Below the pieces are notes generated by a model that worked only from the letters and a program-made list of their open reading frames with translations, was not told where the DNA came from and did not search any database. Below are positions 11,246 through 63,628 of a stretch of 64,000 bases of DNA, in pieces. Made by a program: the position numbers and the translations under genes. The stretch is taken from IMG/VR virus record IMGVR_UViG_3300025030_000010, positions 11,382-75,381 of that record. One strand, given 5' to 3'. How positions within the stretch are numbered: position 1 is the stretch's first letter; the number at the start of each line of letters is the position of its first letter. Origin of the DNA: a virus.

Positions 11246-11629
11246 ATGCCCGTGTCAGATTTCACATCAAGCAAACTAACAACAGACGATCCGAATTATG
11301 CCACCAAGATCAACGCTTTCATGGACTTGGTGGCTTCGGCTATCAATCTGAAATTAGACATTTCGGCTTTCACGGGCAAAACCGTAGTGCCGAAAACAGC
11401 TAACTTCACTGTCGCTGCTTCAGACTACACTATCGAGATGGACGCATCGATTGCCAGCGTAACGGCGACGTTGCCTTCTGCTGCTGCTAATACGGGTCGT
11501 CTTTTAGTTTTTGTTCGAAAGGACGCAAGTCTCTTTCGTGCCATTATCGATACTGTCTATGAGTTATATATTCAGAATGAATCCGTGACTCTTCAATCAA
11601 ATGGAACGATATGGAAAAAGGTGGGTTAA
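11246..11629 (+). CDS. Minor tail/fibre-associated protein
   Basis: TATLPSAAANTGR...ESVTLQSNGTIW motif common in tail fibre proteins. Confidence 0.5.
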   Translation: MPVSDFTSSKLTTDDPNYATKINAFMDLVASAINLKLDISAFTGKTVVPKTANFTVAASDYTIEMDASIASVTATLPSAAANTGRLLVFVRKDASLFRAIIDTVYELYIQNESVTLQSNGTIWKKVG

Positions 11630-22921: not shown

Positions 22922-24037
22922 CTAGGCTTTGATGTTGATTATCGGACGAATGTGGTTGACAATCTCGACCAGATCACGCTGCTGCTCCATGACCTCAAAG
23001 ATGCTTTTGTAAGCGCCTTTCGCTTCATCGATAGTCGAGTCCTGAATCTTCGCAACGATGCCCTGATTCGTCATGCGCTCGCGCTCTTCTTCAACGTTCA
23101 TCTTGCGTCTCGCTGCACCGCGACTCATGATACGACCTGCGCCGTGAGAAGAAGAGCAGAGAGAATCGGGGTTACCTTTACCTCGAACGATAAAGGAGCC
23201 GTCTTCCCAGTTGCCCGGAATGACGCCATACATGCCTTTCTCAGCGTGAGTTGCGCCTTTGCGATGAACCCACAGACCGTCTTTGTTCTGCTCGACGTGG
23301 TTGTGGTTGCGATTGATGAACGTGGAGTAGTCGTAATTGCCTTTGCCGCACCAGACGTAAAGAATGGCGCCGACTCGATTCATCATCTGACGGCGATTCT
23401 CAAGAGCGAAAGCGAGACACATCTCCATGTCCATGAGATAGTCCTTTCCCATTGGAGAAAAGGTATGAAAGCCAAAATGACCTTCAAGTGGCTTGTCACT
23501 GAAAGCAGCAAGCTTCATGTAGTGTTCAGCTACGCCGTGTCCGACGCCACGAGAACCTGAGTGAATCACAACCCAGATTTTATCGTCTTCGTCATAGCCG
23601 ATTTCGATGAAGTGATTGCCGCTGCCGAGTGAGCAGAGCTGCTTGAGTCCCTGCTTCTCTTCCCAGATTCTCATGAAGTCTTGAGTTCTAGGCAGGCACT
23701 TCAACGCAGGGAATATTCCGTCCGTCTCGTTGCGATTGCGTCCAGTAGGAATAAGCTCGTAGATGCGCTTGAAGATTTCATTACGATGCAAGACGATCTG
23801 CTCTCTGCTGAACGTTGTCTTGATTGCGCACATGCCGCAGCCGATATCATAACCAACCCAAGCAGGCACAACAACGTCTTTTGTGGCGATTACACCACCG
23901 ATCGGGAGAGAGTAGCCCGTGTGAGCATCGGGCATGAGAGCGCCTTTGACAGCAAACGGCTGCCGCATTGCGCTGATGAACTGTTTAGCTGCGCTGCGCT
24001 CAAGAATCTCCGCATAGTTCTTTCTCTGCTTCTTCAT
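22922..24037 (-). CDS. rtcB: RtcB-family RNA ligase
   Basis: MPDAH, VGYDIGCG, SGNHF, HSGSRG, HRKGA and SSSHGAGR motifs. Confidence 0.93.
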   Translation of the reverse strand: MKKQRKNYAEILERSAAKQFISAMRQPFAVKGALMPDAHTGYSLPIGGVIATKDVVVPAWVGYDIGCGMCAIKTTFSREQIVLHRNEIFKRIYELIPTGRNRNETDGIFPALKCLPRTQDFMRIWEEKQGLKQLCSLGSGNHFIEIGYDEDDKIWVVIHSGSRGVGHGVAEHYMKLAAFSDKPLEGHFGFHTFSPMGKDYLMDMEMCLAFALENRRQMMNRVGAILYVWCGKGNYDYSTFINRNHNHVEQNKDGLWVHRKGATHAEKGMYGVIPGNWEDGSFIVRGKGNPDSLCSSSHGAGRIMSRGAARRKMNVEEERERMTNQGIVAKIQDSTIDEAKGAYKSIFEVMEQQRDLVEIVNHIRPIINIKA

Positions 24038-32537: not shown

Positions 32538-32768
32538 CTAGATCAGTCTCTTCACCAGATCGATTGCATCTTGAATCGTGTGCAAATTGCCGACTTCTTC
32601 ATCGCTAATTTCGATGCCGAATTCGTCTTCCAGTTCAGCTACGCACTCCACGATGTCGAGCGAATCGCAGCCGATATCTTCGAGCGTCTTGTCTGCCGTG
32701 AGCGCATCGGCGGGATAGCCGAGATGCTCTGTGAATACGTCAATGACTTTCTGTTCCGTTGACTTCAA
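32538..32768 (-). CDS. Acyl carrier protein
   Basis: 76 aa acidic; GCDSLDIVE phosphopantetheine site; ELEDEFGIEISDE...TIQDA. Confidence 0.9.
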   Translation of the reverse strand: MKSTEQKVIDVFTEHLGYPADALTADKTLEDIGCDSLDIVECVAELEDEFGIEISDEEVGNLHTIQDAIDLVKRLI

Positions 32769-33895: not shown

Positions 33896-34249
33896 TTAAT
33901 CCTCGTTAAACTGAGTGTAAGCATTTCCAAATCGAGTTGACATAGAATCTGAAAGATCGACTTCAGACGAGAACATTCGCCATGTGACAACTTGCGCAAG
34001 AACCGCTTTGTCTTCGTCTGTGTCGTAGTGCTTGAAAGCGTCAACGAGAGCTTTTAGCTTCCAGTTCTTCGATGTCTTGTCGTATGTGCCTGTTTGACAC
34101 GAAGACACACCGATTCGATAAATTCTAATCTCACAAGCTCCGCTGTGAGGCACAACGTAAATAGATAAGATGCAATGTCCACAATGTAGCTGCTCGACTG
34201 TTCCGTTTCCCCATTCGCGTACTGCTTCGAGCGAGAATTCTTTGATCAT
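33896..34249 (-). CDS. Hypothetical protein, tandem family member 2
   Basis: Start MIKEFS; DKAVLAQVVTWRM. Confidence 0.55.
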   Translation of the reverse strand: MIKEFSLEAVREWGNGTVEQLHCGHCILSIYVVPHSGACEIRIYRIGVSSCQTGTYDKTSKNWKLKALVDAFKHYDTDEDKAVLAQVVTWRMFSSEVDLSDSMSTRFGNAYTQFNED

Positions 34250-34683
34250 AGCTTCATCCTCAGTACAACGAGCTGTGCAATGACTTCTTTTGCGTTCACA
34301 TCGTCTTTGAGCGCTGTATAGAGTGCCTTGAGCGCCCACGACTCTCTTGTATCGAAATCGTCAACGTGAATCAGCTCTGCTTGCGGAGTGTGAGTGCCTT
34401 TGACCTCAAAGAGTCGTATCTTTTGAGACACGTTCTGAATTGACACGACTCTGAACATGCGTCCGCACAAAAACAACTCCTGAAGATCATGACTCTCCAT
34501 AAACTTGATAACATCTTTAATTGGTCTTGTGTGGTCGTAGTAAGTGTTCATCTTCCCCACCGTGAGAGTGTGTTTCGGTCTACCCGCAGATTTAGGCGCA
34601 GACTGCGATAACAACTGAGCTGATATCCAGATTATCGCAGTTGCGCCTAATGTTCCTGCTGCGAAGTCGAGCAAGTCGATCAC
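34246..34683 (-). CDS. Hypothetical protein, tandem family member 1
   Basis: AKEVIAQLVVLRM; N-terminal hydrophobic segment. Confidence 0.55.
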   Translation of the reverse strand: MIDLLDFAAGTLGATAIIWISAQLLSQSAPKSAGRPKHTLTVGKMNTYYDHTRPIKDVIKFMESHDLQELFLCGRMFRVVSIQNVSQKIRLFEVKGTHTPQAELIHVDDFDTRESWALKALYTALKDDVNAKEVIAQLVVLRMKL

Positions 34684-37404: not shown

Positions 37405-38502
37405 CTACAGATCGAGAAAGCCTTTAAGCTTTTCCTTAGCGAATACGTTGATGTTATTCGTGGGTGGAGCAATGTACTCGTGAGAGAAGCAGATACGCTC
37501 TACGTCCGTCTTCCACGTCCCGCCTAGCTGCCCCGCATTCACAACACAATTGCTGTTGTTTGAAGATGTCGCTCTCCAGAGAGGAGACTTGTTTCTGTGA
37601 GCGCCGAGCTTAGGATGTGTGACTCGTGAGTAGTAGCGATAACCTGCATTGATGTAGAGCTGCGCGACTGCGTTGCTGAACTTAACGCCTAGACCCATGC
37701 CCTGATAGTCAGGAAGAATTACAGTGCGATGCGAGCGATAAGCGTTCTTTACAGTACCAGAGGGGAGAGGGAGAACAGCGATGAAGCCGATGATATTTTC
37801 CTCGAACTTCAAAGCGAAGCATCTCGCCGCTTTGTTCAGTGCCGAAGTTAGGTAGTGATGTGACTTAAACATTTCCCACAAAAACGAATCGCATGTGAGT
37901 ATGTCAAGCTCGATTTTTGGGACTGGTTGGGGTAACCTCCGTTTGTATTTCTTCGTGTCCGTATTGTAAATCCAATCGGGCTGAAGCCAGTCGATGATAT
38001 CGAAATGGCACGAAGCAAACACAACGTTAGTGAGGCCCTGCTTACGGATATACTTCGAGATTGCGAAAGCGCACGACTTAGCGACGTTTCTATCAACTAC
38101 AGACGTGAACTCGTCTATGACGCATCCTGACTTCAATTTACGGGCAAGATTCGCTCTATACTGTTCCCCGTTGCTGAGAACATGAAAGGGCTTGAGCCAG
38201 CTAGGGATTGAGTTGAGTCCTACGGAGGTGAGCTTGTCGATAGCTTCGTCTGCGCTGCTGAAGTGAGAAGCGATTGCTTTCTTGCCGTCCCAGATAATCT
38301 CTTCATCTTCACCGAAGTCTTCGAGCAAGAGAGATTTGCCTGAGCCAGAAGCTCCGACGATTAAGCCGATGTTGAATTCGCCTGTGATGGTGGGTTTTTT
38401 GTGAAGAGTGAAAGTCGTTTCGCCTGTGAACTCGTAATCGAAAATCTTGCCTATCTCTTGCGATATGGCATCGAGTTTCACTTTAGACTTGATTTCAGCC
38501 AT
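37405..38502 (-). CDS. ABC-type ATPase fused to GNAT acyltransferase
   Basis: GASGSGKS, LSNGE, IDEFTS, SCH, then HHYL...RTVILPDYQGMGLG acyl-CoA-binding motif A. Confidence 0.85.
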   Translation of the reverse strand: MAEIKSKVKLDAISQEIGKIFDYEFTGETTFTLHKKPTITGEFNIGLIVGASGSGKSLLLEDFGEDEEIIWDGKKAIASHFSSADEAIDKLTSVGLNSIPSWLKPFHVLSNGEQYRANLARKLKSGCVIDEFTSVVDRNVAKSCAFAISKYIRKQGLTNVVFASCHFDIIDWLQPDWIYNTDTKKYKRRLPQPVPKIELDILTCDSFLWEMFKSHHYLTSALNKAARCFALKFEENIIGFIAVLPLPSGTVKNAYRSHRTVILPDYQGMGLGVKFSNAVAQLYINAGYRYYSRVTHPKLGAHRNKSPLWRATSSNNSNCVVNAGQLGGTWKTDVERICFSHEYIAPPTNNINVFAKEKLKGFLDL

Positions 38503-38606
38503 GCTGCACCTCCGTTGAATCGGATTTTGAGTCAAAAAGAGGGCTCCCCGCGTTTGCGGAGAACCCTACTTCTTTGCTTAACTTGTCAATGCTGCCGGCG
38601 CCGTTC

Positions 38607-50756: not shown

Positions 50757-51368
50757 TTAGAAATCGTATTGACTTCTCCAACTACTTGCCTTCATTTGCT
50801 CTTTTCTTATCGCTGATATTTTACGCTTTGTTTCTTCGGTGAGACTTTTACCGAAATTGTGATTCTTCTCTCCGCGCTTTGCTGCCGCTTGCTTCTCTCT
50901 CGTCTCTTTGTTCTGAGCTTGAACTTTCACTCGCTCGCTCAATTCTTTTCTATATTGCGGCGAGTCATGAACAATTTTCATCTTCTTTCGGAACTCTTCA
51001 CTTTCCCAAAGTCGCTTCTTACTAACACTCATTTTCGATTTAATCTCAGCAGTCAGAGAGAACCCGTAACCGCCGTCAATCATGTTCGTGAGATTTGCTC
51101 CGAGTGATTTGAAATAATCGATCCACCATGATTCCGATTCTTGCCATTGTGAATCACGGACTCGCTCAAGAATTATCAACTCTGGAATCAGCTTCAATCT
51201 TTTCAGCGAGCGTAACCAACAATGTTTGTGTGAGCGACCGCGATGCTTTAAATGTTGCTTGAATCGAATGTGGGGAGAGTCTGCTTTGCCGATGTAGCGG
51301 AGTTGATTTGTGCGTGGGTCGATCAGCCCATAAATGTGAGTGTATTTGATTGCTCGTATAGTTCGCAT
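50757..51368 (-). CDS. GIY-YIG homing endonuclease with NUMOD3-like tail
   Basis: IYGL...YIGK...R.KQH...E..WI...LTNMIDGG; EETKRKIS repeats. Confidence 0.85.
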   Translation of the reverse strand: MRTIRAIKYTHIYGLIDPRTNQLRYIGKADSPHIRFKQHLKHRGRSHKHCWLRSLKRLKLIPELIILERVRDSQWQESESWWIDYFKSLGANLTNMIDGGYGFSLTAEIKSKMSVSKKRLWESEEFRKKMKIVHDSPQYRKELSERVKVQAQNKETREKQAAAKRGEKNHNFGKSLTEETKRKISAIRKEQMKASSWRSQYDF

Positions 51369-51517: not shown

Positions 51518-52087
51518 TCAGTTAGTTGATTCCGCTCTGTTAGCTTTGGCGATTCGATACACAGACGCGATTCCGATTCCGAGCGCGTCTGCCACATGCT
51601 GCTTTGTCTTCCCTTTACTCAGCAGCTCAAGCACTTCTTTAGTTTTAGCGATAGCAGTTGGCTGTCTGCCTTTGTAAGCACCCGCTGCCTTAGCTATCGC
51701 TATACCGGCTGCTTGACGCTCAAGCATCATTTCTCGCTCGAACGTTGCAATGGCTCCCAGCATGGTGAGCATTAGCTTCCCCGTGGGCGTTGTCGTATCG
51801 AGATTGATATTTAGTACCTTGAATTCAACGCCCTTTTTCTGTAGCGCGTCAACGATGTTTAAAAGGTCTTGAGTGCTGCGGGCGATACGGTCAATCTTAC
51901 AGACCACGAGAACGTCACCCTCTCGAACATAGTCGAGCATAGCCACAAGCTGCGGCCTGTCTTTGCTGTTCTTCGCGCTCGCTTTCTCTTGATAGAGCTT
52001 ATCCACTTTCTCTCGTTTCAGCTCTGACAGTTGAGCCTCTAACGATTGGCCAGTGGTCGAGACTCTCGCGTATCCGATTTTAGCCAT
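51518..52087 (-). CDS. Small serine recombinase (resolvase/invertase)
   Basis: GYARVST, DRPQL, REGD, IDRIARS, AIATFERE, C-terminal HTH. Confidence 0.93.
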   Translation of the reverse strand: MAKIGYARVSTTGQSLEAQLSELKREKVDKLYQEKASAKNSKDRPQLVAMLDYVREGDVLVVCKIDRIARSTQDLLNIVDALQKKGVEFKVLNINLDTTTPTGKLMLTMLGAIATFEREMMLERQAAGIAIAKAAGAYKGRQPTAIAKTKEVLELLSKGKTKQHVADALGIGIASVYRIAKANRAESTN

Positions 52088-56637: not shown

Positions 56638-56659
56638 GACTTTCTCCTTTGCTCGTTGT

Positions 56660-56725
56660 TTGACTGCTCAAGAAAGCGCTACAGAAGACGGCAGGAATCG
56701 TCTGTAGCGCTCGATCAGAAGTCAA
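56660..56725. repeat. Intergenic hairpin element, copy 8
   Basis: Same conserved ends, different stem. Confidence 0.9.
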
Positions 56726-56993: not shown

Positions 56994-57016
56994 TCTGTTT
57001 CTCCTCGTTGCTGTAT

Positions 57017-57076
57017 TTGACTGCTCAAGCGAAGCGCTACAGCGGTGCTTTGCTGTAGCGTTCTATCAGCGGTCAA
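57017..57076. repeat. Intergenic hairpin element, copy 7
   Basis: Same conserved ends, different stem. Confidence 0.9.
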
Positions 57077-57079
57077 GCG

Positions 57080-57829
57080 CTATGCTTCTTTGCGATGATA
57101 CACTTTCTGCCCTGCTGCGTTCTTCTCGACAGTCAGAACGCCGAAGCTGATCAGTGCGTGTAGGATGCTGCGGGTAATGTTACCCGTTTTGGGGTTTGAC
57201 TCGCCGCCCTTTGCAACATGAAGATCATCCGATTTCTGTTGAATGTCTTTGAAGCTGATACCCTTTTTCCCGATCTTCAGCAGCACGTCCGTGATAGCCA
57301 TGTATCTCGAATAGCTGGGCGGGGCGGCGACTTTCGCGGGCTTTGCTGCTTTGTCTGCTTTCAGCTCGCTGGTGCTCTTCGCTTTCTTCGCGGGCTTCGT
57401 TGCTTTCGGGGACTCAGGGTTGACGGGGACAACGAAGCCGAGCAGCTCAAGCGTTGCTTTCGTTGCGTCTGTAATCTGCTCCTCTGCTTTCTTCGTCCCG
57501 TTGAAGTCGCTGAAGTCGAGGTCCGCGCTGTTCTTCATGATATCGCGGGCGATTGCTTTCTCGTTGATCTTAACGTTGATAGCGGGCTTGAGTCCCATTT
57601 TTTCGTTCATGTCAGAAGCTGCGGCGATCAGCGTGTCTCGTGTGAGCGCTGCGGGCGCTGCGGGTTCTTCTTTCTTCGCTGCGGGCGTCTTCGCTGCTTT
57701 CGCTGCTTTCTCGGGTTTGACGGGAGCAGCTTTCGCGGGAGTCGCTGCTGCTTTCTCTGTTGCGGGTTTAACTGCTTTCGAGGACTTCGCGGGCTTCGCT
57801 GCTGCTGTTGCTTTCGTCTCGGTGTTCAT
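57080..57829 (-). CDS. Basic Ala/Lys/Pro-rich protein with winged-helix-like C-terminus (paralogue of 38607-39449)
   Basis: AAGGAG RBS before MNTETK; frame stays open upstream. Confidence 0.7.
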   Translation of the reverse strand: MNTETKATAAAKPAKSSKAVKPATEKAAATPAKAAPVKPEKAAKAAKTPAAKKEEPAAPAALTRDTLIAAASDMNEKMGLKPAINVKINEKAIARDIMKNSADLDFSDFNGTKKAEEQITDATKATLELLGFVVPVNPESPKATKPAKKAKSTSELKADKAAKPAKVAAPPSYSRYMAITDVLLKIGKKGISFKDIQQKSDDLHVAKGGESNPKTGNITRSILHALISFGVLTVEKNAAGQKVYHRKEA

Positions 57830-58215
57830 GGTGTTCTCCTTTTCTGCTGTCGGTTGTGCTGCGTTGGCTTCGTCAATCTGCGAAAGAAGGGAAAGCGTGC
57901 TGCTGTCGTTTTTCAGTGTCGCGTTGTGCTGCTTAATCGCGTCTGCTGTTGCAATCGGGTCCGCCCCGTTCAAAACTGCTTTAATGCCGCTGAGAAATGT
58001 TCCGTCAAATGTCGTTTTTTCATTGTCTTCTCCTCGTTGATTCCGCTCTGTCATGTGCGTTGATTCCGATCTGATACGTGTTGATTCCATTACAGTATGT
58101 GAGTAATGCAAAGTCCTTTGCTCTGCGCTGCTCTCAACTGTCGCGCTGTCAATGTGTACTGTCGATTTCTTATCATGACTCTGAACATGCTTTCCCTCTC
58201 GCTGTCGTGTGTTTA

Positions 58216-58277
58216 TTTGACTGCTCAAGCGAAGCGCTTCAACGCTGATCTGTTGAAGCGTTCTATCAGCTTTCAAA
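58216..58277. repeat. Intergenic hairpin element, copy 6
   Basis: Same conserved ends, different stem. Confidence 0.9.
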
Positions 58278-58282
58278 TGCTC

Positions 58283-58534
58283 TCAAAGACTCTTAACAAC
58301 GCGCTCTAGATACTCTGACAATTCATGATCAATTCCCAGCAGCACTTGAGCAGCAGAGCGAATTCCCAGCAGTTTGTTGAAGTGGCAACGAGCTTCAGAT
58401 TTTTCGTTGTGATACGCTTCACTGTAATCGTTTAGCACTGTGTCAAAGTATGCGCGAAGCGCTAAAACGTTGCTGTAATCAACATGCGTTACTGAATCAC
58501 TGCTCTGTTTAATCAACTTGTTTTTCTCGCTCAT
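58283..58534 (-). CDS. Early-region hypothetical protein
   Basis: Fills space between elements 5 and 6. Confidence 0.65.
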   Translation of the reverse strand: MSEKNKLIKQSSDSVTHVDYSNVLALRAYFDTVLNDYSEAYHNEKSEARCHFNKLLGIRSAAQVLLGIDHELSEYLERVVKSL

Positions 58535-58556
58535 GATATCCCCTCTGCTGCTGTAT

Positions 58557-58621
58557 TTGACTGCTCAAGAAAGCACTACAGAACGCGCTAGAATCGTCTG
58601 TAGTGCTCTATCAGAAGTCAA
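58557..58621. repeat. Intergenic hairpin element, copy 5
   Basis: Same conserved ends, different stem. Confidence 0.9.
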
Positions 58622-58629
58622 CGCTTCTC

Positions 58630-58824
58630 TTATGCTTCACACTCTTCAAAATGAGCGTCACAGACAAAAATTCCGTCTTCGTCTATTGTAGTTGCACGCT
58701 CGTTGCAATCGCATATTTCACACATTGCGACACTGTCGAGATTCTCATAGTTCTCTGCTGCTTCTTCGATTGCTAATTTTCCGTATTTGTTCTCGATCAG
58801 CAATTCTCTGTAAGTCTTCGTCAT
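58630..58824 (-). CDS. Small acidic Cys-rich early protein
   Basis: CEICDC...CDAH; between elements 4 and 5. Confidence 0.65.
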   Translation of the reverse strand: MTKTYRELLIENKYGKLAIEEAAENYENLDSVAMCEICDCNERATTIDEDGIFVCDAHFEECEA

Positions 58825-58862
58825 TTCGTTTTCTCTCTTCGCGCTGTGTCAACGCTCGTTTA

Positions 58863-58930
58863 TTTGACTACTCAAGAACACGCTACAGAACGCGCTTAAA
58901 ATCGTCTGTAGCGTGCTATCAGTGTTCAAA
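58863..58930. repeat. Intergenic hairpin element, copy 4
   Basis: TTTGACTACTCAA...CTATCAG-TGT-TCAAA; stop codon of upstream gene lies inside the TTTGA arm. Confidence 0.9.
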
Positions 58931-59360
58931 TTATGTATGCGTGCTCTTCAAACTCTGTATCTCTCAGAGCTTCAATTAATTCGTCTCGTGTCATGTTTTC
59001 GCAGTCTTCGTCAATCAACGCTCTGTAATGCTCTCTCAGCTCTTCGTCTGTGAAGTTGAGAGCTGCGCAAGCGTTGATAACTGTGTTGACTTCGTCAAGA
59101 TCAGCGCAGAGCGTTTCTTTCTGTTCTTTGTCTACTTCAAACACTATGACTTTGAACTTTGCAGCGAGAACAACGCTTTTTAAATCTTCGTCACACTCAA
59201 GCTCATTTTCTGCGCAGTTGATAACAGCATAATTGACGCTGAAATTCTCGTGATAATCGCGCACATAAAACGTGTAAAATTCATCGCTCTGCTCAATGTA
59301 ATCAGCGTTTAAAAGCTCTTTCGTTGCTGCTGCTAGTTTCTTGAGTTCTCGCTTCTTCAT
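58926..59360 (-). CDS. Acidic early protein (no Gly/Pro/Trp)
   Basis: 144 aa between elements 3 and 4. Confidence 0.7.
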   Translation of the reverse strand: MKKRELKKLAAATKELLNADYIEQSDEFYTFYVRDYHENFSVNYAVINCAENELECDEDLKSVVLAAKFKVIVFEVDKEQKETLCADLDEVNTVINACAALNFTDEELREHYRALIDEDCENMTRDELIEALRDTEFEEHAYII

Positions 59361-59396
59361 GTCGTTTTCTCTCTTCGCTCGTTGTGAGCTGTTTTA

Positions 59397-59452
59397 TTTG
59401 ACTGCTCAAGCGAGACGCTGAAATTGCTTTCAGCGCTCTATCAGCGTTCAAA
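59397..59452. repeat. Intergenic hairpin element, copy 3
   Basis: Same conserved ends, short stem. Confidence 0.9.
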
Positions 59453-59454
59453 CG

Positions 59455-59907
59455 TTACTGCTCAACTGCTACATAATTCAACTGCTCGTGTCGCTCTAAC
59501 AGCGCGTCAATCGCTTTAATCAGCTCTTGAGCATTGAACAACAGAGCTAAATCAATGTCTTCAGTAGTACAATTCCCGTTTTCATCATAAATCCCTAGCT
59601 CTAAATAGTGTTTTGCAAAATCGTTCTCTTCTTCGTTGAAACAGATAATCGCTTGACAGTCTTTTTCATAACATTTTGTGTCAACTGTTATTGCATTATC
59701 TTCGTATCTGTCAGCGTGTCGCATCTCGAAAACAAGTTCTGTCTGTGAAGCGTTCAATGCTTCAACGCGCTGCTCATAGAAGCTAATACGCAAAAACTGA
59801 TCAATGCTAAAAGCGCGTGTTACTTCGTTGCTGATCTTGTTTTCTCTGTTGAAGTAATTGAGAATCACTGCGTTCTTTGCTGCTGTCGTGTCTAGTGTGC
59901 ATTTCAT
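59455..59907 (-). CDS. Acidic early protein
   Basis: 150 aa between elements 2 and 3. Confidence 0.7.
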   Translation of the reverse strand: MKCTLDTTAAKNAVILNYFNRENKISNEVTRAFSIDQFLRISFYEQRVEALNASQTELVFEMRHADRYEDNAITVDTKCYEKDCQAIICFNEEENDFAKHYLELGIYDENGNCTTEDIDLALLFNAQELIKAIDALLERHEQLNYVAVEQ

Positions 59908-59945
59908 GTTGTTTTCTCGCTTCGCGCTGTATCAGCGCTGTTTTA

Positions 59946-60005
59946 TTTGACTACTCAAGCGCAAGCGTCAACGCTGCTCTGTTGACGCTGCTATCAGCAT
60001 TCAAA
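59946..60005. repeat. Intergenic hairpin element, copy 2
   Basis: Same conserved ends, different stem. Confidence 0.9.
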
Positions 60006-60083
60006 ATAATCGATCTGCGAAATTATCAACAAACATACAGACAACAAAAGTTGAAATCAGCGCATAAAATATGAAGTCGTTTT

Positions 60084-60458
60084 TCATGCGATACGCTCGA
60101 CAATCATCGTTGAATCTTCGTCAACAATGTATCGAGTCTCGTTTACTTTCAGCGTTTCAAGCGCTAACACGTCTTCAGTGCTCATAGATACAAGCTCATA
60201 CTGTGATGTAATTGTGAACAACGAAACGTTGCTTAAAATAGCTGCTTTGCTCTCTGCGTCAATTACGTTGAAGCGCTTGCTTTCTTTGTAATAATCGAAA
60301 ATTTGCACACATGCTTTGATATTCATTGCACAATGTTTTCTAAACATCTTGTTAAATTTATCAGCTTCTTTCAGTGCGATTTTTTCGTCTGCGTAAACTA
60401 AACATTTTTCAATCAGTTGCATCTCTGCGTTCACTAGAACAACTTGATATTCACTCAT
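60084..60458 (-). CDS. First early protein (no Gly/Pro/Trp)
   Basis: 124 aa after element 1. Confidence 0.7.
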   Translation of the reverse strand: MSEYQVVLVNAEMQLIEKCLVYADEKIALKEADKFNKMFRKHCAMNIKACVQIFDYYKESKRFNVIDAESKAAILSNVSLFTITSQYELVSMSTEDVLALETLKVNETRYIVDEDSTMIVERIA

Positions 60459-60493
60459 TTCGTTTTCTCTCTTCGCGCTGTGTCAGCGCTGTT

Positions 60494-60568
60494 TTATTTG
60501 ACTGCTCAACACAGCAGCGCAGCGTTTAAAATGTGACTCGCTGCGCTGCTCTATTAAGTTTCAAATAA
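60494..60568. repeat. Intergenic hairpin element, copy 1 (divergent right arm)
   Basis: TTATTTGACTGCTCAA...AGCAGCGCAGCG/CGCTGCGCTGCT...CTATTAAG-TT-TCAAATAA. Confidence 0.85.
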
Positions 60569-60911
60569 CTGCTAATTCATATCTTGTGTTCGTTGTGATG
60601 TCTTACTGCTTCAGCTACTCGCTCATTATTTAAGACTGTATGAGAGCTAATTTAGTACACAGCGCGTAAAAGTTAATTATCGACTCTTGCTAGATAACAC
60701 AGTCGTTTTCGCTTTTTTCAGTTCAGCGTTGCGATGTCATTTCTCTACTCAGTGACAGTCAAGCGCACTATTCAATTATCAAAGAACTCTGAAGTTTAAG
60801 AACTCGCTGCTGTTGCGCTGTTTAAGCGCTTAGAGTGTCAGAGCGAGAGAAAGCAGAGTTGACGCGCTTTCTTTTGTGCTGCGTTTCAAGTTGTCAAATG
60901 CTACAGCTCAC

Positions 60912-60939
60912 AATCTACACGCTATTGATAATATTTCAA
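60912..60939 (-). promoter_or_regulatory. Possible sigma70 promoter for the early array
   Basis: TTGAAA-16 nt-TAGATT; same TAGATTGTG as the 39511 promoter. Confidence 0.4.
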
Positions 60940-61434
60940 GCAAAAAACCAGTAGATAAACGATTTCCTTTAAAATAATTTGCGCTGCTCTTCGCAGTGCT
61001 CAAAGTCGCGTTCTCGCTGCGTTTGTGTGCTGTCGCGCTTATGCTCAAAACACAGCGTAAAACGAACGCATTGACGCTGTAGCGCGTTAACTCTGCTCGT
61101 GTGATAAATGAGACGCGCAGCAGCAAAGACAGCTTAAAACGCAGATAAGAGCGCTGGGCATAGTTGAGCGTGAAATGATCGACAACACAGCGACACGTCA
61201 ACGCAGATCGAAACGAGAGCAGAACACAGCAGCGCGTCAACGTCTCGTGTGCTCGTTGCTGTTGAATGAAAGCTGTCAGATAACACACTATCAGAATGTA
61301 AAACCCTCGTTGCTATACTTGAGTAATGCACGCGAAGCGCTTTAATGTCCTAAATGACTCTTTTTTGTGCAACAATCGCGCAAGTGCTAGTAATCACAGG
61401 AAAACGATTTTGCGCAGCTCCTCAGATCGAAAAG

Positions 61435-61530
61435 TTATCAACATTTGACGCTGTTTTATCAACAGAATGCTATTTCATAAAAACACGCTGAAAACACGAG
61501 TTATCAACAGTTTTCCTCTACTTATCAACA
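61435..61530 (+). repeat. Four TTATCAACA boxes
   Basis: Exact copies at 61435, 61456, 61501 and 61522. Confidence 0.8.
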
Positions 61531-62695
61531 TGCCCTAAAACGAACAAAAACCCGCTTTTTAGACGTTCAAGCGTCAACGTATAGCTCTCTATGCACACGT
61601 TTTCTGTATCTTCAGCGCGTCCTCTGCGAAAGCGCATGAATAAAGGGTTTAGCTGTCATATTGATAAATGAAATCCAACTTTCAAAACGAATAATAGACC
61701 CCTTAAAACGCATCTCAGCACAAAACGCATGAAACAACGCTCTGACACACTCAAGCGCATACATGAGAGCATGAACAGCACAACACTAAACAAACGCGCT
61801 GAACATGCTTTCCCTTTCGCACGTCAACACGTCAACATGCTATAGATAATCGCGCACACGATATACAGCAACACACTCAAGTTTAACCTCTATAAACTTC
61901 CTCAAAGTCACATACTCTGCTAAACAATTCCCTTCTAAATATCTCTTGCATACTGTATGAGCTAACGAAAGAAAGTCCAACAGCACGTTTCTAAAAAGCA
62001 CACAACACAGCAGAACAATCAACGCGCATGACCTCACATAGTTAGCACTGAACTTAATCAAGTTTCGTTTCGTCTTAAAACAGCGATAACACAGCAGCAC
62101 ACACAACAATGAATCAAACTAACAGTTAGTTAATCACAGTCAGCGTGTATATGTTCAACGTATAGAAACTTACAGCATACAAGTGTAGAAAGATCAATTT
62201 CCCGTAGCTCAAAGCTCTCTGCTTTCATGTCGTGAAACTTTGCAGCTCAACAGCACGACACGAGCGCAGCAGATCAGCAGCAGCACACAGCGCAGCGTCT
62301 CACTTGAGCAAGCGCAAGCGATAGCACACGAAACAGCGTCAACACGCTATCACACGAGCACAACAGCGCATCGATAGCACGCTTTATCACAGCTCTGCCC
62401 TTGATAGCACTCGCTCTGCTGCTTCGCTGCTCTCGCCCTGCCCTGCTCGATGCCCTGAGCTGCGCTGCTGTCGATGCTGAGAATTGCGCAAGGGCACCCC
62501 GTGTTTTCAGACACGGTGGGTAGCCAGAAACGCGGAGGTTCCGGATTCTAAACTTTTAGAGTCGAAATCTTATTTTTCTATATAGGGGAAGAAAAAATTT
62601 AAACGTGACGGTGACGGCGTAAAACGAGACACGCGAAAAATCGAAAAGCGCTGGAAAAATTTTCCAAAAAAATTACCGCTGAGGAGCAAAACGAT

Positions 62696-63628
62696 ATGGC
62701 ACGAACGGCACTTCCAAAATTCACGAAACGAAAGGGATTCAGAACTCCCGCGGAAGAGGCAAGAGTCCATGCGGCTACGCCTCAGGGGAAGGTGGAGAAA
62801 TCGCTGCGCAAGGTACGGCGAATGGTCGACAAACGACTGGAGCTGAGAGCGGTGGAGGAAACGGCTGAAATTTTGGCTAGAGAACCTGAAAGTCAAGAGC
62901 CTCGGAAAGAACATCGCACGGGGCGCAGAGTGGATAGGAAAATCGGCGAAGGCATAAACATACCGCCACAGGCTGCGATACCCGTTAACTCTAATGGACG
63001 CCCTGCGATATACGACCCGTACCGCTTCCCACATATTGCCTACGTCCTTTGCAAAGAGCGTGGTTTCACAAACGAGGAACTGGCACGAGTTTTCGACGTA
63101 TCTATTTCCAGCGTAAATCAGTGGATATGGATGCACGAAGAATTTAAAAGAATGGTTAGGAGAGGACGCGATGAATACGACAGTGAGAACGTGGAAAACG
63201 CGCTGCGCAAACGTGCTATTGGCTATAAATATACTGAGACACATCGCACGAGAACTAAGATCATCGGAAAGCTCTCGAACGGTACGGAAGTTGAGATCCC
63301 CGCTCTTTCAATCACCACGGTGGAGAAAGAAGTAGCGCCTGATCCGCGTTCGGCAATGTACTGGCTGCAAAATCGACAACCAGAACGTTGGAAGAATACT
63401 CTCAAGATCGAAGTCGATGCCACAACTGGTCAAGTCGAAGAAGAGGCTCTTTCAATCGAGGATATGTCCACTGCTGAACTTCTTGCGCTACGTGACATCT
63501 CGACTAAAGCGGCTGAGATGCGCGTAAAGACGATTGATATTGCACCCGAGAGGCAACAGTCTTCGGTGGCAGATATTTTAGCGGCAGCCGACAGAATGGC
63601 AATAGCACATCAAAAGGTGACTCCATGA
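62696..63628 (+). CDS. Terminase small subunit
   Basis: GRPAIY, HTH (ELARVFDVSISSVNQW), VENALRKRAIGY, PDPRSAMYWLQNRQPERW. Confidence 0.85.
   Translation: MARTALPKFTKRKGFRTPAEEARVHAATPQGKVEKSLRKVRRMVDKRLELRAVEETAEILAREPESQEPRKEHRTGRRVDRKIGEGINIPPQAAIPVNSNGRPAIYDPYRFPHIAYVLCKERGFTNEELARVFDVSISSVNQWIWMHEEFKRMVRRGRDEYDSENVENALRKRAIGYKYTETHRTRTKIIGKLSNGTEVEIPALSITTVEKEVAPDPRSAMYWLQNRQPERWKNTLKIEVDATTGQVEEEALSIEDMSTAELLALRDISTKAAEMRVKTIDIAPERQQSSVADILAAADRMAIAHQKVTP

Follow-up and report, generated by a model that had tools for sequence, protein, structure and literature searches.

The IMG/VR record IMGVR_UViG_3300025030_000010 is the genome of an uncultured phage; it comprises 75,381 bp, and its record ends overlap by 127 bp (circular assembly). 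Within it we found one region from which the dinucleotides GG and CC are almost entirely missing. Positions 11,382–75,381 of the record, a stretch of 64,000 nucleotides, are hereafter called the window, and all coordinates of this phage are those of the window. The region lies beside the terminase genes at the head of a long early operon, and in two relatives the equivalent place is depleted of a different step, CA/TG. Elsewhere in the phage genome, palindromes that contain the banned step escape the strong avoidance that affects many other palindromes. Judging from these sequence patterns, we favour the reading that the zone is a modification-free immediate-early region, with an ABC-ATPase/GNAT fusion and an acyl carrier protein as the candidate modifier, and we put the probability of this reading at roughly 0.4.

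A local and nearly total ban on GG and CC

The region consists of a core and a longer zone around it, both delimited by dinucleotide counts:

58783..60947, minus strand: core zone, in which GG and CC are both banned
57959..62491, minus strand: extended zone, in which sense-strand CC is nearly gone; its edges are sharp

In the 2,165 bp of the core (40.6% GC) there are four GG/CC dinucleotides, whereas about 180 would be expected from composition (108.6 GG and 71.7 CC) and still about 115 if the genome's own observed-to-expected ratio (O/E) for GG/CC, 0.65, is applied. The flanking CCs lie at 58,781 and 60,948, and between them the sole occurrences are two CCC runs (59,575–77 and 59,593–95), both of them Gly codons of the gene for a 150-residue protein. 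This recount reproduces exactly what had been read by eye in the original prediction, a first reading of the bare sequence. The two GG/CC-free gaps measure 1,354 and 794 bp, whereas the longest anywhere else in the window is 97 bp; for the 1,354-bp gap, log10 P is about −43. Since GC and CG steps are enriched in the core (O/E 1.84 and 1.42, respectively), the ban does not reflect AT-richness, as had also been argued at the outset. AG and CT are not enriched there.

Around the core the depletion continues more weakly from 58.0 to 62.4 kb, at per-kilobase O/E values of 0.19–0.27, in agreement with the early estimate of its extent. The emptiest kilobases of the zone have values of 0.00–0.07, against 0.4–1.0 across the remaining genome and 0.5–0.9 as the genome-wide figure, so that the zone is not a local view of a genome-wide trait; depletion of comparable depth is absent outside it, and the 75,381-bp genome holds no second such zone. 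The genome as a whole has less GG/CC than relatives of similar GC (O/E 0.65 vs 0.87–1.15). A second, small stretch poor in plus-strand GG (that is, sense-strand CC) occurs at 33,901–34,500, within two small minus-strand open reading frames (ORFs) of the replication block.

A strand-asymmetric ban at the level of nucleotides

On the sense (minus) strand, only six CC dinucleotides, at four places, occur over about 4.5 kb (57,959–62,491). Sense-strand GG is fully banned only in the core and falls to an O/E of about 0.3 in both flanks, where GGA makes up about three-quarters of the GG that survives. Read as a CC/NGG word, the depletion thus concerns both strands; it is complete in the core, and in the flanks one strand only is fully purged. 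Sense-strand TC is lowered in the zone as well (O/E 0.81–0.84 vs 1.44).

The ban targets nucleotides, not proteins. The three core genes, with 418 codons, have two codons containing GG or CC where about 59 would be expected, and at codon junctions G|G or C|C is never seen, against an expectation of about 30. Ribosome-binding sites in the core lack GG, and downstream of the core two of the first reappearances of GG are ribosome-binding sites. The missing amino acids follow from a ban at the level of DNA letters: a recount of composition bore out that the 124- and 144-residue proteins have no Gly, Pro or Trp and that the 150-residue protein has two Gly and neither Pro nor Trp.

An intergenic element, composed of CTGATAG, a hairpin and CTTGAGYAGTCAAATAMA, is present in ten copies in the phage, six of which fall in the zone:

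58212..60510, minus strand: six copies of the element

Copies in the zone are without GG/CC, and copies outside it (e.g., 56,650–56,725 and 57,005–57,081) contain GG/CC. The phage's own element thus obeys the ban inside and ignores it outside, which indicates that the zone is native DNA purged in place and not an import. A scan of viral contigs for the motif of this element returned single chance matches only.

These observations bear on the idea that the zone is a functionless by-product, either of context-specific hypermutation (for example, by a CC-specific deaminase) or of a recent acquisition of foreign DNA of odd composition. The GC content of the zone does fall 6–8 points short of that in the remaining genome, and its sense strand is somewhat enriched in TT. 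However, reading frames, hairpins and the intergenic element are intact, GG/CC has been replaced by mixed substitutions and not by transitions alone, and G and C persist in GC and CG steps with no enrichment of AG or CT. The obedience of codon junctions, the sharp edges and the ban on a different step at the equivalent place in a relative (see below) are likewise hard to derive from such a process, which we regard as highly improbable.

Genes and sequence elements of the zone

The zone comprises a leader and the first five small acidic genes of a long minus-strand early operon, and it adjoins the terminase genes:

60459..62570, minus strand: leader of about 2.1 kb with no convincing ORF (ORF, Rfam and tRNA scans)
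60084..60458, minus strand: first early gene, 124 amino acids (aa), isoelectric point (pI) 4.9, no Gly, Pro or Trp, no family match
59455..59907, minus strand: second early gene, 150 aa, pI 4.5, two Gly, no Pro or Trp
58926..59360, minus strand: third early gene, 144 aa, pI 4.4, 36 Asp+Glu, no Gly, Pro or Trp, an orphan
58630..58824, minus strand: fourth early gene, 64 aa, pI 4.1; the core terminates within this gene
58283..58534, minus strand: fifth early gene, 83 aa
62400..62470, minus strand: four AGGGCA repeats, clustered exactly at the upstream edge of the zone
62696..63628, plus strand: terminase small subunit gene (terS)
from 63,813, running across the record end, transcribed opposite to the early operon: terminase large subunit gene (terL)

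The leader carries six GTTGACG repeats and four copies of TGTTGATAA (61,441–61,536). Rfam and tRNA scans of it were empty, the tRNA scan found no tRNA genes anywhere in the genome, and scans for consensus promoters and terminators gave no excess over shuffled controls. The fifth early gene is the first to have GG back in its ribosome-binding site (58,541–43). None of the five early proteins has a family match in Pfam or PHROG, and for the two that were searched against large protein collections (150 and 144 aa) no homologues were found: the 150-residue protein is an orphan among 1.84 billion cluster representatives and has no usable match in the ESM Atlas, and the AlphaFold model of the 144-residue protein was unusable (predicted local distance difference test, pLDDT, 43).

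The sharp outer edge of the zone lies about 200 bp from terS. The AGGGCA cluster is a possible packaging or regulator site. Leftward, the zone heads a minus-strand early/replication block that encodes a MoxR ATPase, a VWA protein, an SNF2 helicase, DnaB, PolB, a sliding clamp, a RecA-like protein, a gp32-like protein, RtcB and SbcCD. TerL bears a weak likeness to the terminases of headful packagers (32–46% identity).

Relatives ban a different step at the equivalent place

PolB is about 45% identical to its counterparts in Queuovirinae. Megablast of the zone against phages gave no match and the TerS query found no related loci, but 160 related loci were obtained through an alignment of MoxR ATPase homologues. 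The closest relatives, in ENA/Logan, have an ATPase 75–81% identical. Nothing comparable to the zone was found in unrelated viral loci (about 1.1 Mb) or in related ones (1.9 Mb), except in one of the 160 loci, which belongs to the relative G001. This complete 77-kb genome has the same gene order as the phage (terL, terS, leader, small genes, DUF3150, ATPase), and at the position equivalent to the GG/CC zone it has a 3-kb zone nearly without CA/TG. Nearly all TG left there belongs to ATG codons, and His, Gln, Cys and Trp are missing from the first proteins. The ban is longer and stricter for sense-strand CA, equivalent to template-strand TG. In G020, a second relative, CA/TG is depleted less strongly at the equivalent place (O/E 0.15–0.25). 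The zones of the three genomes have no detectable sequence similarity to each other. It follows that the rule belongs to the location, with the banned step being lineage-specific.

Two phage isolates carry GG/CC-free islands as well. Pseudomonas phage nickie (Pseudomonas syringae) has a gap of 1,137 bp (log10 P −65) and Rhizobium phage RHEph10 (Rhizobium etli) one of 549 bp (log10 P −31); both gaps sit among small hypothetical genes.

Some minor features of the relatives were noted in passing. G001 has a cluster of TGCA, ATGCAT and CATG (locus L167, 4,700–5,230) between terS and its CA/TG-free zone; this cluster contains the banned step, as do the AGGGCA repeats at the edge of the GG/CC zone. 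A radical-SAM gene of G001 (L210, 2,363–4,841) is apparently split by an intein carrying a DUF559 endonuclease. Two further relatives have, upstream of the ATPase gene, stretches of 375–506 bp without AA on one strand (L156, 566–1,072, and L159, 2,928–3,303; log10 P −31 and −22, respectively), in which TT is not banned.

The strand bias raises the possibility of a ban at the level of RNA, in which case early transcripts would avoid a dinucleotide that some host factor prefers to bind or cut. Such a factor might be a HEPN-type collateral RNase, orthologues of which differ in their preferred dinucleotide, or Rho, which binds YC. The longest and sharpest ban is indeed on the sense strand (CC here, CA in G001), sense TC is lowered too, and the phage encodes an RtcB RNA ligase; RtcB reseals the 2′,3′-cyclic-phosphate ends left by HEPN-type collateral RNases. 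Yet the complementary word is banned equally in the core (GG here; TG in G001, save for ATG codons), and a ban on complementary pairs points to double-stranded DNA. An RNA-level ban would also require the 2-kb leader to be transcribed throughout, does not account for the reversed asymmetry in RHEph10 and leaves the palindrome exemption described below unexplained. We consider it quite improbable. Avoidance of Rho (rut) sites in untranslated leaders was rejected specifically: sense G exceeds C and both CC and TC are lowered, but GG is banned just as fully in the core.

Palindromes containing the banned step escape avoidance

We counted six-bp palindromes outside the zone (57,900–62,600 excluded) and called those with an O/E below 0.25 strongly avoided. 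Of the palindromes without GG/CC, 22 of 50 are strongly avoided, examples being:

CAGCTG: seen 0, expected 26
AGATCT: seen 0, expected 23
CTCGAG: seen 1, expected 35

CTGCAG and GACGTC are likewise never seen and GAGCTC is seen once, expectations for these six being 13–35 each; the four-bp GATC, CGCG and TGCA are low as well. None of the nine testable palindromes that contain GG/CC is strongly avoided, whereas 31 of 67 are in six related genomes pooled (Fisher p = 0.006).

The same holds for the other step in the relatives that ban it. In G001 and G020, 0 of 16 CA/TG palindromes are avoided in each, compared with 12 of 34 and 16 of 33 others (Mann–Whitney p = 4e-5 and 1e-5, respectively), and the phage itself avoids 8 of 16 CA/TG palindromes. 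As positive controls we used CAjan and PBPA162, since GA is an experimentally established modified motif in CAjan and in the iggy relative PBPA162 (PMC10484667). GA/TC palindromes are avoided in 0 of 14 and 0 of 16 cases, respectively, and others in 7 of 42 in each (0/30 vs 14/84 when pooled). A base modification at one step would be expected to exempt, as seen here, a wide variety of sites that have this step in common. The 22 palindromes avoided across the genome are missing from the zone too (1 seen, 23.7 expected), which shows that the zone is protected by sequence alone.

Candidate modifier genes

Two genes of the phage stand out as parts of a putative modification system:

37405..38535, minus strand: ABC-ATPase/GNAT fusion, candidate reader of GG/CC
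32538..32768, minus strand: acyl carrier protein, adjoining the DNA polymerase gene

The fusion matches phrog_11143 (E = 3.6e-113) and has further ABC-ATPase and acetyltransferase matches in PHROG, a Pfam GNAT match (E = 2.7e-6) and 40% identity to a protein of phage pT24, the example of a family predicted by Iyer et al. to acylate a DNA base (PMC7824862). It is present in the phage and in none of 50 relatives. The acyl carrier protein is possibly its acyl donor. The two relatives that ban CA/TG share a pyridoxal phosphate (PLP) enzyme (55% identity), and G001 also encodes two radical-SAM enzymes, a protein resembling phosphoadenosine phosphosulfate (PAPS) reductase, and a DNA methylase.

Modification by the DpdA/7-deazaguanine pathway (dpdA, folE, queD, queE, queC) was rejected: tblastn with CAjan DpdA and preQ0-synthesis proteins gave no match in the phage or in G001. 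The same queries detect DpdA, FolE, QueC and QueE in the positive control PBPA162. A profile search with PF01702 (TGT) is unreliable for DpdA, as it missed PBPA162 (Iggyvirus), where tblastn detects a gene with 72% identity.

A proposed modification-free immediate-early zone

The original prediction had offered two explanations for the ban. According to the first, DNA that enters or is expressed first is stripped of a short word needed by a host defence, and anti-defence genes are thereby expressed before the defence strikes; the words considered were the CC protospacer-adjacent motif (PAM) of type I-F CRISPR, the NGG PAM of Cas9-type nucleases, and GG/CC restriction or phosphorothioate motifs. 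Much of the anatomy speaks for this idea. The zone opens the early operon and borders on terS/terL, where a packaging end is plausible, its sharp outer edge being close to terS. It holds small acidic orphan genes with fast turnover, judging from the dissimilarity of the three islands. The idea has a precedent in T5, in which sites in first-entering DNA alone confer sensitivity (PMC10644984). The low genome-wide GG/CC ratio and the absence from the zone of palindromes avoided elsewhere fit as well. On the other hand, TerL gives no clear packaging type, and the genome-wide exemption of many GG/CC palindromes is left unexplained. The PAM form of the idea does not extend to the syntenic relative: CA/TG, banned there at the same place, fits no common PAM, TG being known as a PAM only for the rare Cas12c. 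The PAM-like words AAG and TTC are not depleted in the zone, strand asymmetry is unexpected for a PAM, and PAM depletion in print is very small (CC 8.27% vs 8.74%, genome-wide; PMC12174588). We take target-free first-acting DNA to be a serious competitor, somewhat less probable than the reading favoured here.

The second explanation, that GG/CC is marked elsewhere in the genome and the zone has to stay unmarked, is better supported, owing to the exemption of banned-step palindromes from strong avoidance. The ban, its position, the other step banned in the relatives and the palindrome exemption are direct observations; that a modification exists, which enzyme is responsible for it and why the zone must be free of it we infer from sequence. 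The reader of the banned steps would probably be the phage's own DNA marking. The rest of the phage DNA would be chemically marked at a two-base step by a phage enzyme, with the zone kept free of that step. In the phage the step would be GG/CC and the candidate marker the ABC-ATPase/GNAT fusion, possibly with the acyl carrier protein as donor; in G001 and G020 it would be CA/TG, served by a different enzyme set. We count this joint change of step and enzyme set in favour of modification. Marking would shield restriction sites that contain the step, and such sites would be tolerated genome-wide. The DNA read first, namely the leader and the first five early genes beside the packaging genes, would offer no markable site and would be made restriction-proof by sequence instead of by marking. 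Two reasons for this arrangement seem likely. Adducts on the template strand might hinder the unaided host RNA polymerase; alternatively, marks might lay the zone open to modification-dependent host nucleases at a time when the phage has yet to make counter-measures. That the ban is stricter for template-strand GG (TG in G001) would fit harm from template-strand adducts.

Several observations weigh against the modification-free reading. The GG/CC exemption rests on nine palindromes and is at p = 0.076 by the Mann–Whitney test. AA/TT palindromes are exempt too, here and in several controls, and the four-bp GGCC and CCGG are still avoided about 2-fold. GG/CC palindromes of nickie are not exempt (6 of 13 avoided), and in RHEph10 the strand asymmetry of the island is reversed. 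G001 and G020 may share both the banned step and the palindrome exemption by descent. Six phages with full-length homologues of the ABC-GNAT protein have no island (PX29, with 160 of its 222 kb examined, Jace, LE3, phiE255, TR-TP2 and P12024S), and we therefore rejected the notion that this protein is sufficient for one. Nor does any short-motif modifier imply a motif-free zone: CAjan, a proven short-motif modifier, has none, and PBPA162 shows only a 2-fold dip. This dip, in a strand-switch region at 42–44 kb of PBPA162 (MK816297.1; GA 51 and TC 48 per 2 kb, against about 100), may represent a faint motif-poor zone.

A wider generalization can be offered only tentatively. Some phages might mark their DNA at a two-base step, by an ABC-ATPase/GNAT protein at GG here and by other enzymes at TG in the relatives, and keep a "clean room" of several kilobases for the genes that host machinery reads first. 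If so, sequence alone would suffice to read the specificity of unknown DNA modifications off the banned step. More generally, if such a zone marks the part of a genome that has to go unseen or unmarked, scanning uncultured phages for missing dinucleotides would pinpoint their immediate-early genes (anti-defence, host-takeover) and at the same time reveal the specificity of a DNA-reading activity. The palindrome-exemption test offers a sequence-only route to predicting the short word that a phage modifies, and the islands of the isolates nickie and RHEph10 open the question to bench testing.

Relation to known systems

The idea of site-free first-acting DNA is already known. In the literature searched, we found neither a described dinucleotide-free or modification-free phage zone nor any account, for bacteria or phages, of a dinucleotide-level reader, whether modifying or defensive. 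New relative to that literature is a local, total and strand-biased two-base ban that reshapes proteins and ribosome-binding sites and switches step between relatives.

The closest parallel is the first-step-transfer DNA of T5 and BF23. Restriction, CRISPR and Ssp defences act on T5 only through sites in the first-entering DNA (PMC10644984), and the pre-early DNA of T5/BF23 includes a large non-coding region with repeats (10.1101/866236). As in the zone, there is a discrete block of first-acting genes, mostly of unknown function, that is free of defence recognition sites, here both in its dinucleotides and in the avoided palindromes. T5, however, lacks particular six-bp sites by chance or mild selection, whereas in the phage a two-base step has been erased completely, three amino acids as well as canonical ribosome-binding sites being given up for it. 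The genes of the zone, which may be counterparts of host-takeover or anti-defence pre-early genes, are five small acidic orphans without family, fold or homologue.

Restriction-site avoidance and PAM depletion (PMC4246573, PMC12174588) similarly remove short words read by immune systems, and the phage does show genome-wide palindrome avoidance; its purge differs from PAM depletion in being local, total and strand-asymmetric, with another step in a relative. T7 and T3 place sites with a strand bias against type III restriction (mentioned in PMC10644984). Here too, a short word in phage DNA obeys a rule that differs by strand, but the rule concerns the orientation of a 5–6-base site genome-wide and not the removal of a dinucleotide from one zone.

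In short-motif modification (DpdA/dPreQ0 at GA, iggy, PMC10484667; predicted base acylation by ABC-ATPase/GNAT proteins, PMC7824862), a phage enzyme acts at a word of two to three bases and protects the sites that contain it, and the phage studied here carries a member of the predicted ABC-GNAT family. Avoidance spares palindromes with the word both in the known cases and in the phage; the known cases differ in having no modification-free zone, 7-deazaguanine genes were not found in the phage by the tblastn searches above, and the modification here is a predicted one. In CAjan, DpdA-type modification is also at GGC.

Other genes of the phage

Directly downstream of the zone, at 57080–58093 on the minus strand, lies a gene for a Lys/Ala/Pro-rich histone H1-like protein with no family match; three GGAATCAAC repeats stand ahead of its probable start (about 58,040–58,095). 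Further minus-strand genes encode the RtcB RNA ligase (22922–24037), a GIY-YIG/NUMOD3 homing-type endonuclease (50757–51368) and a serine recombinase of the resolvase type (51518–52087).

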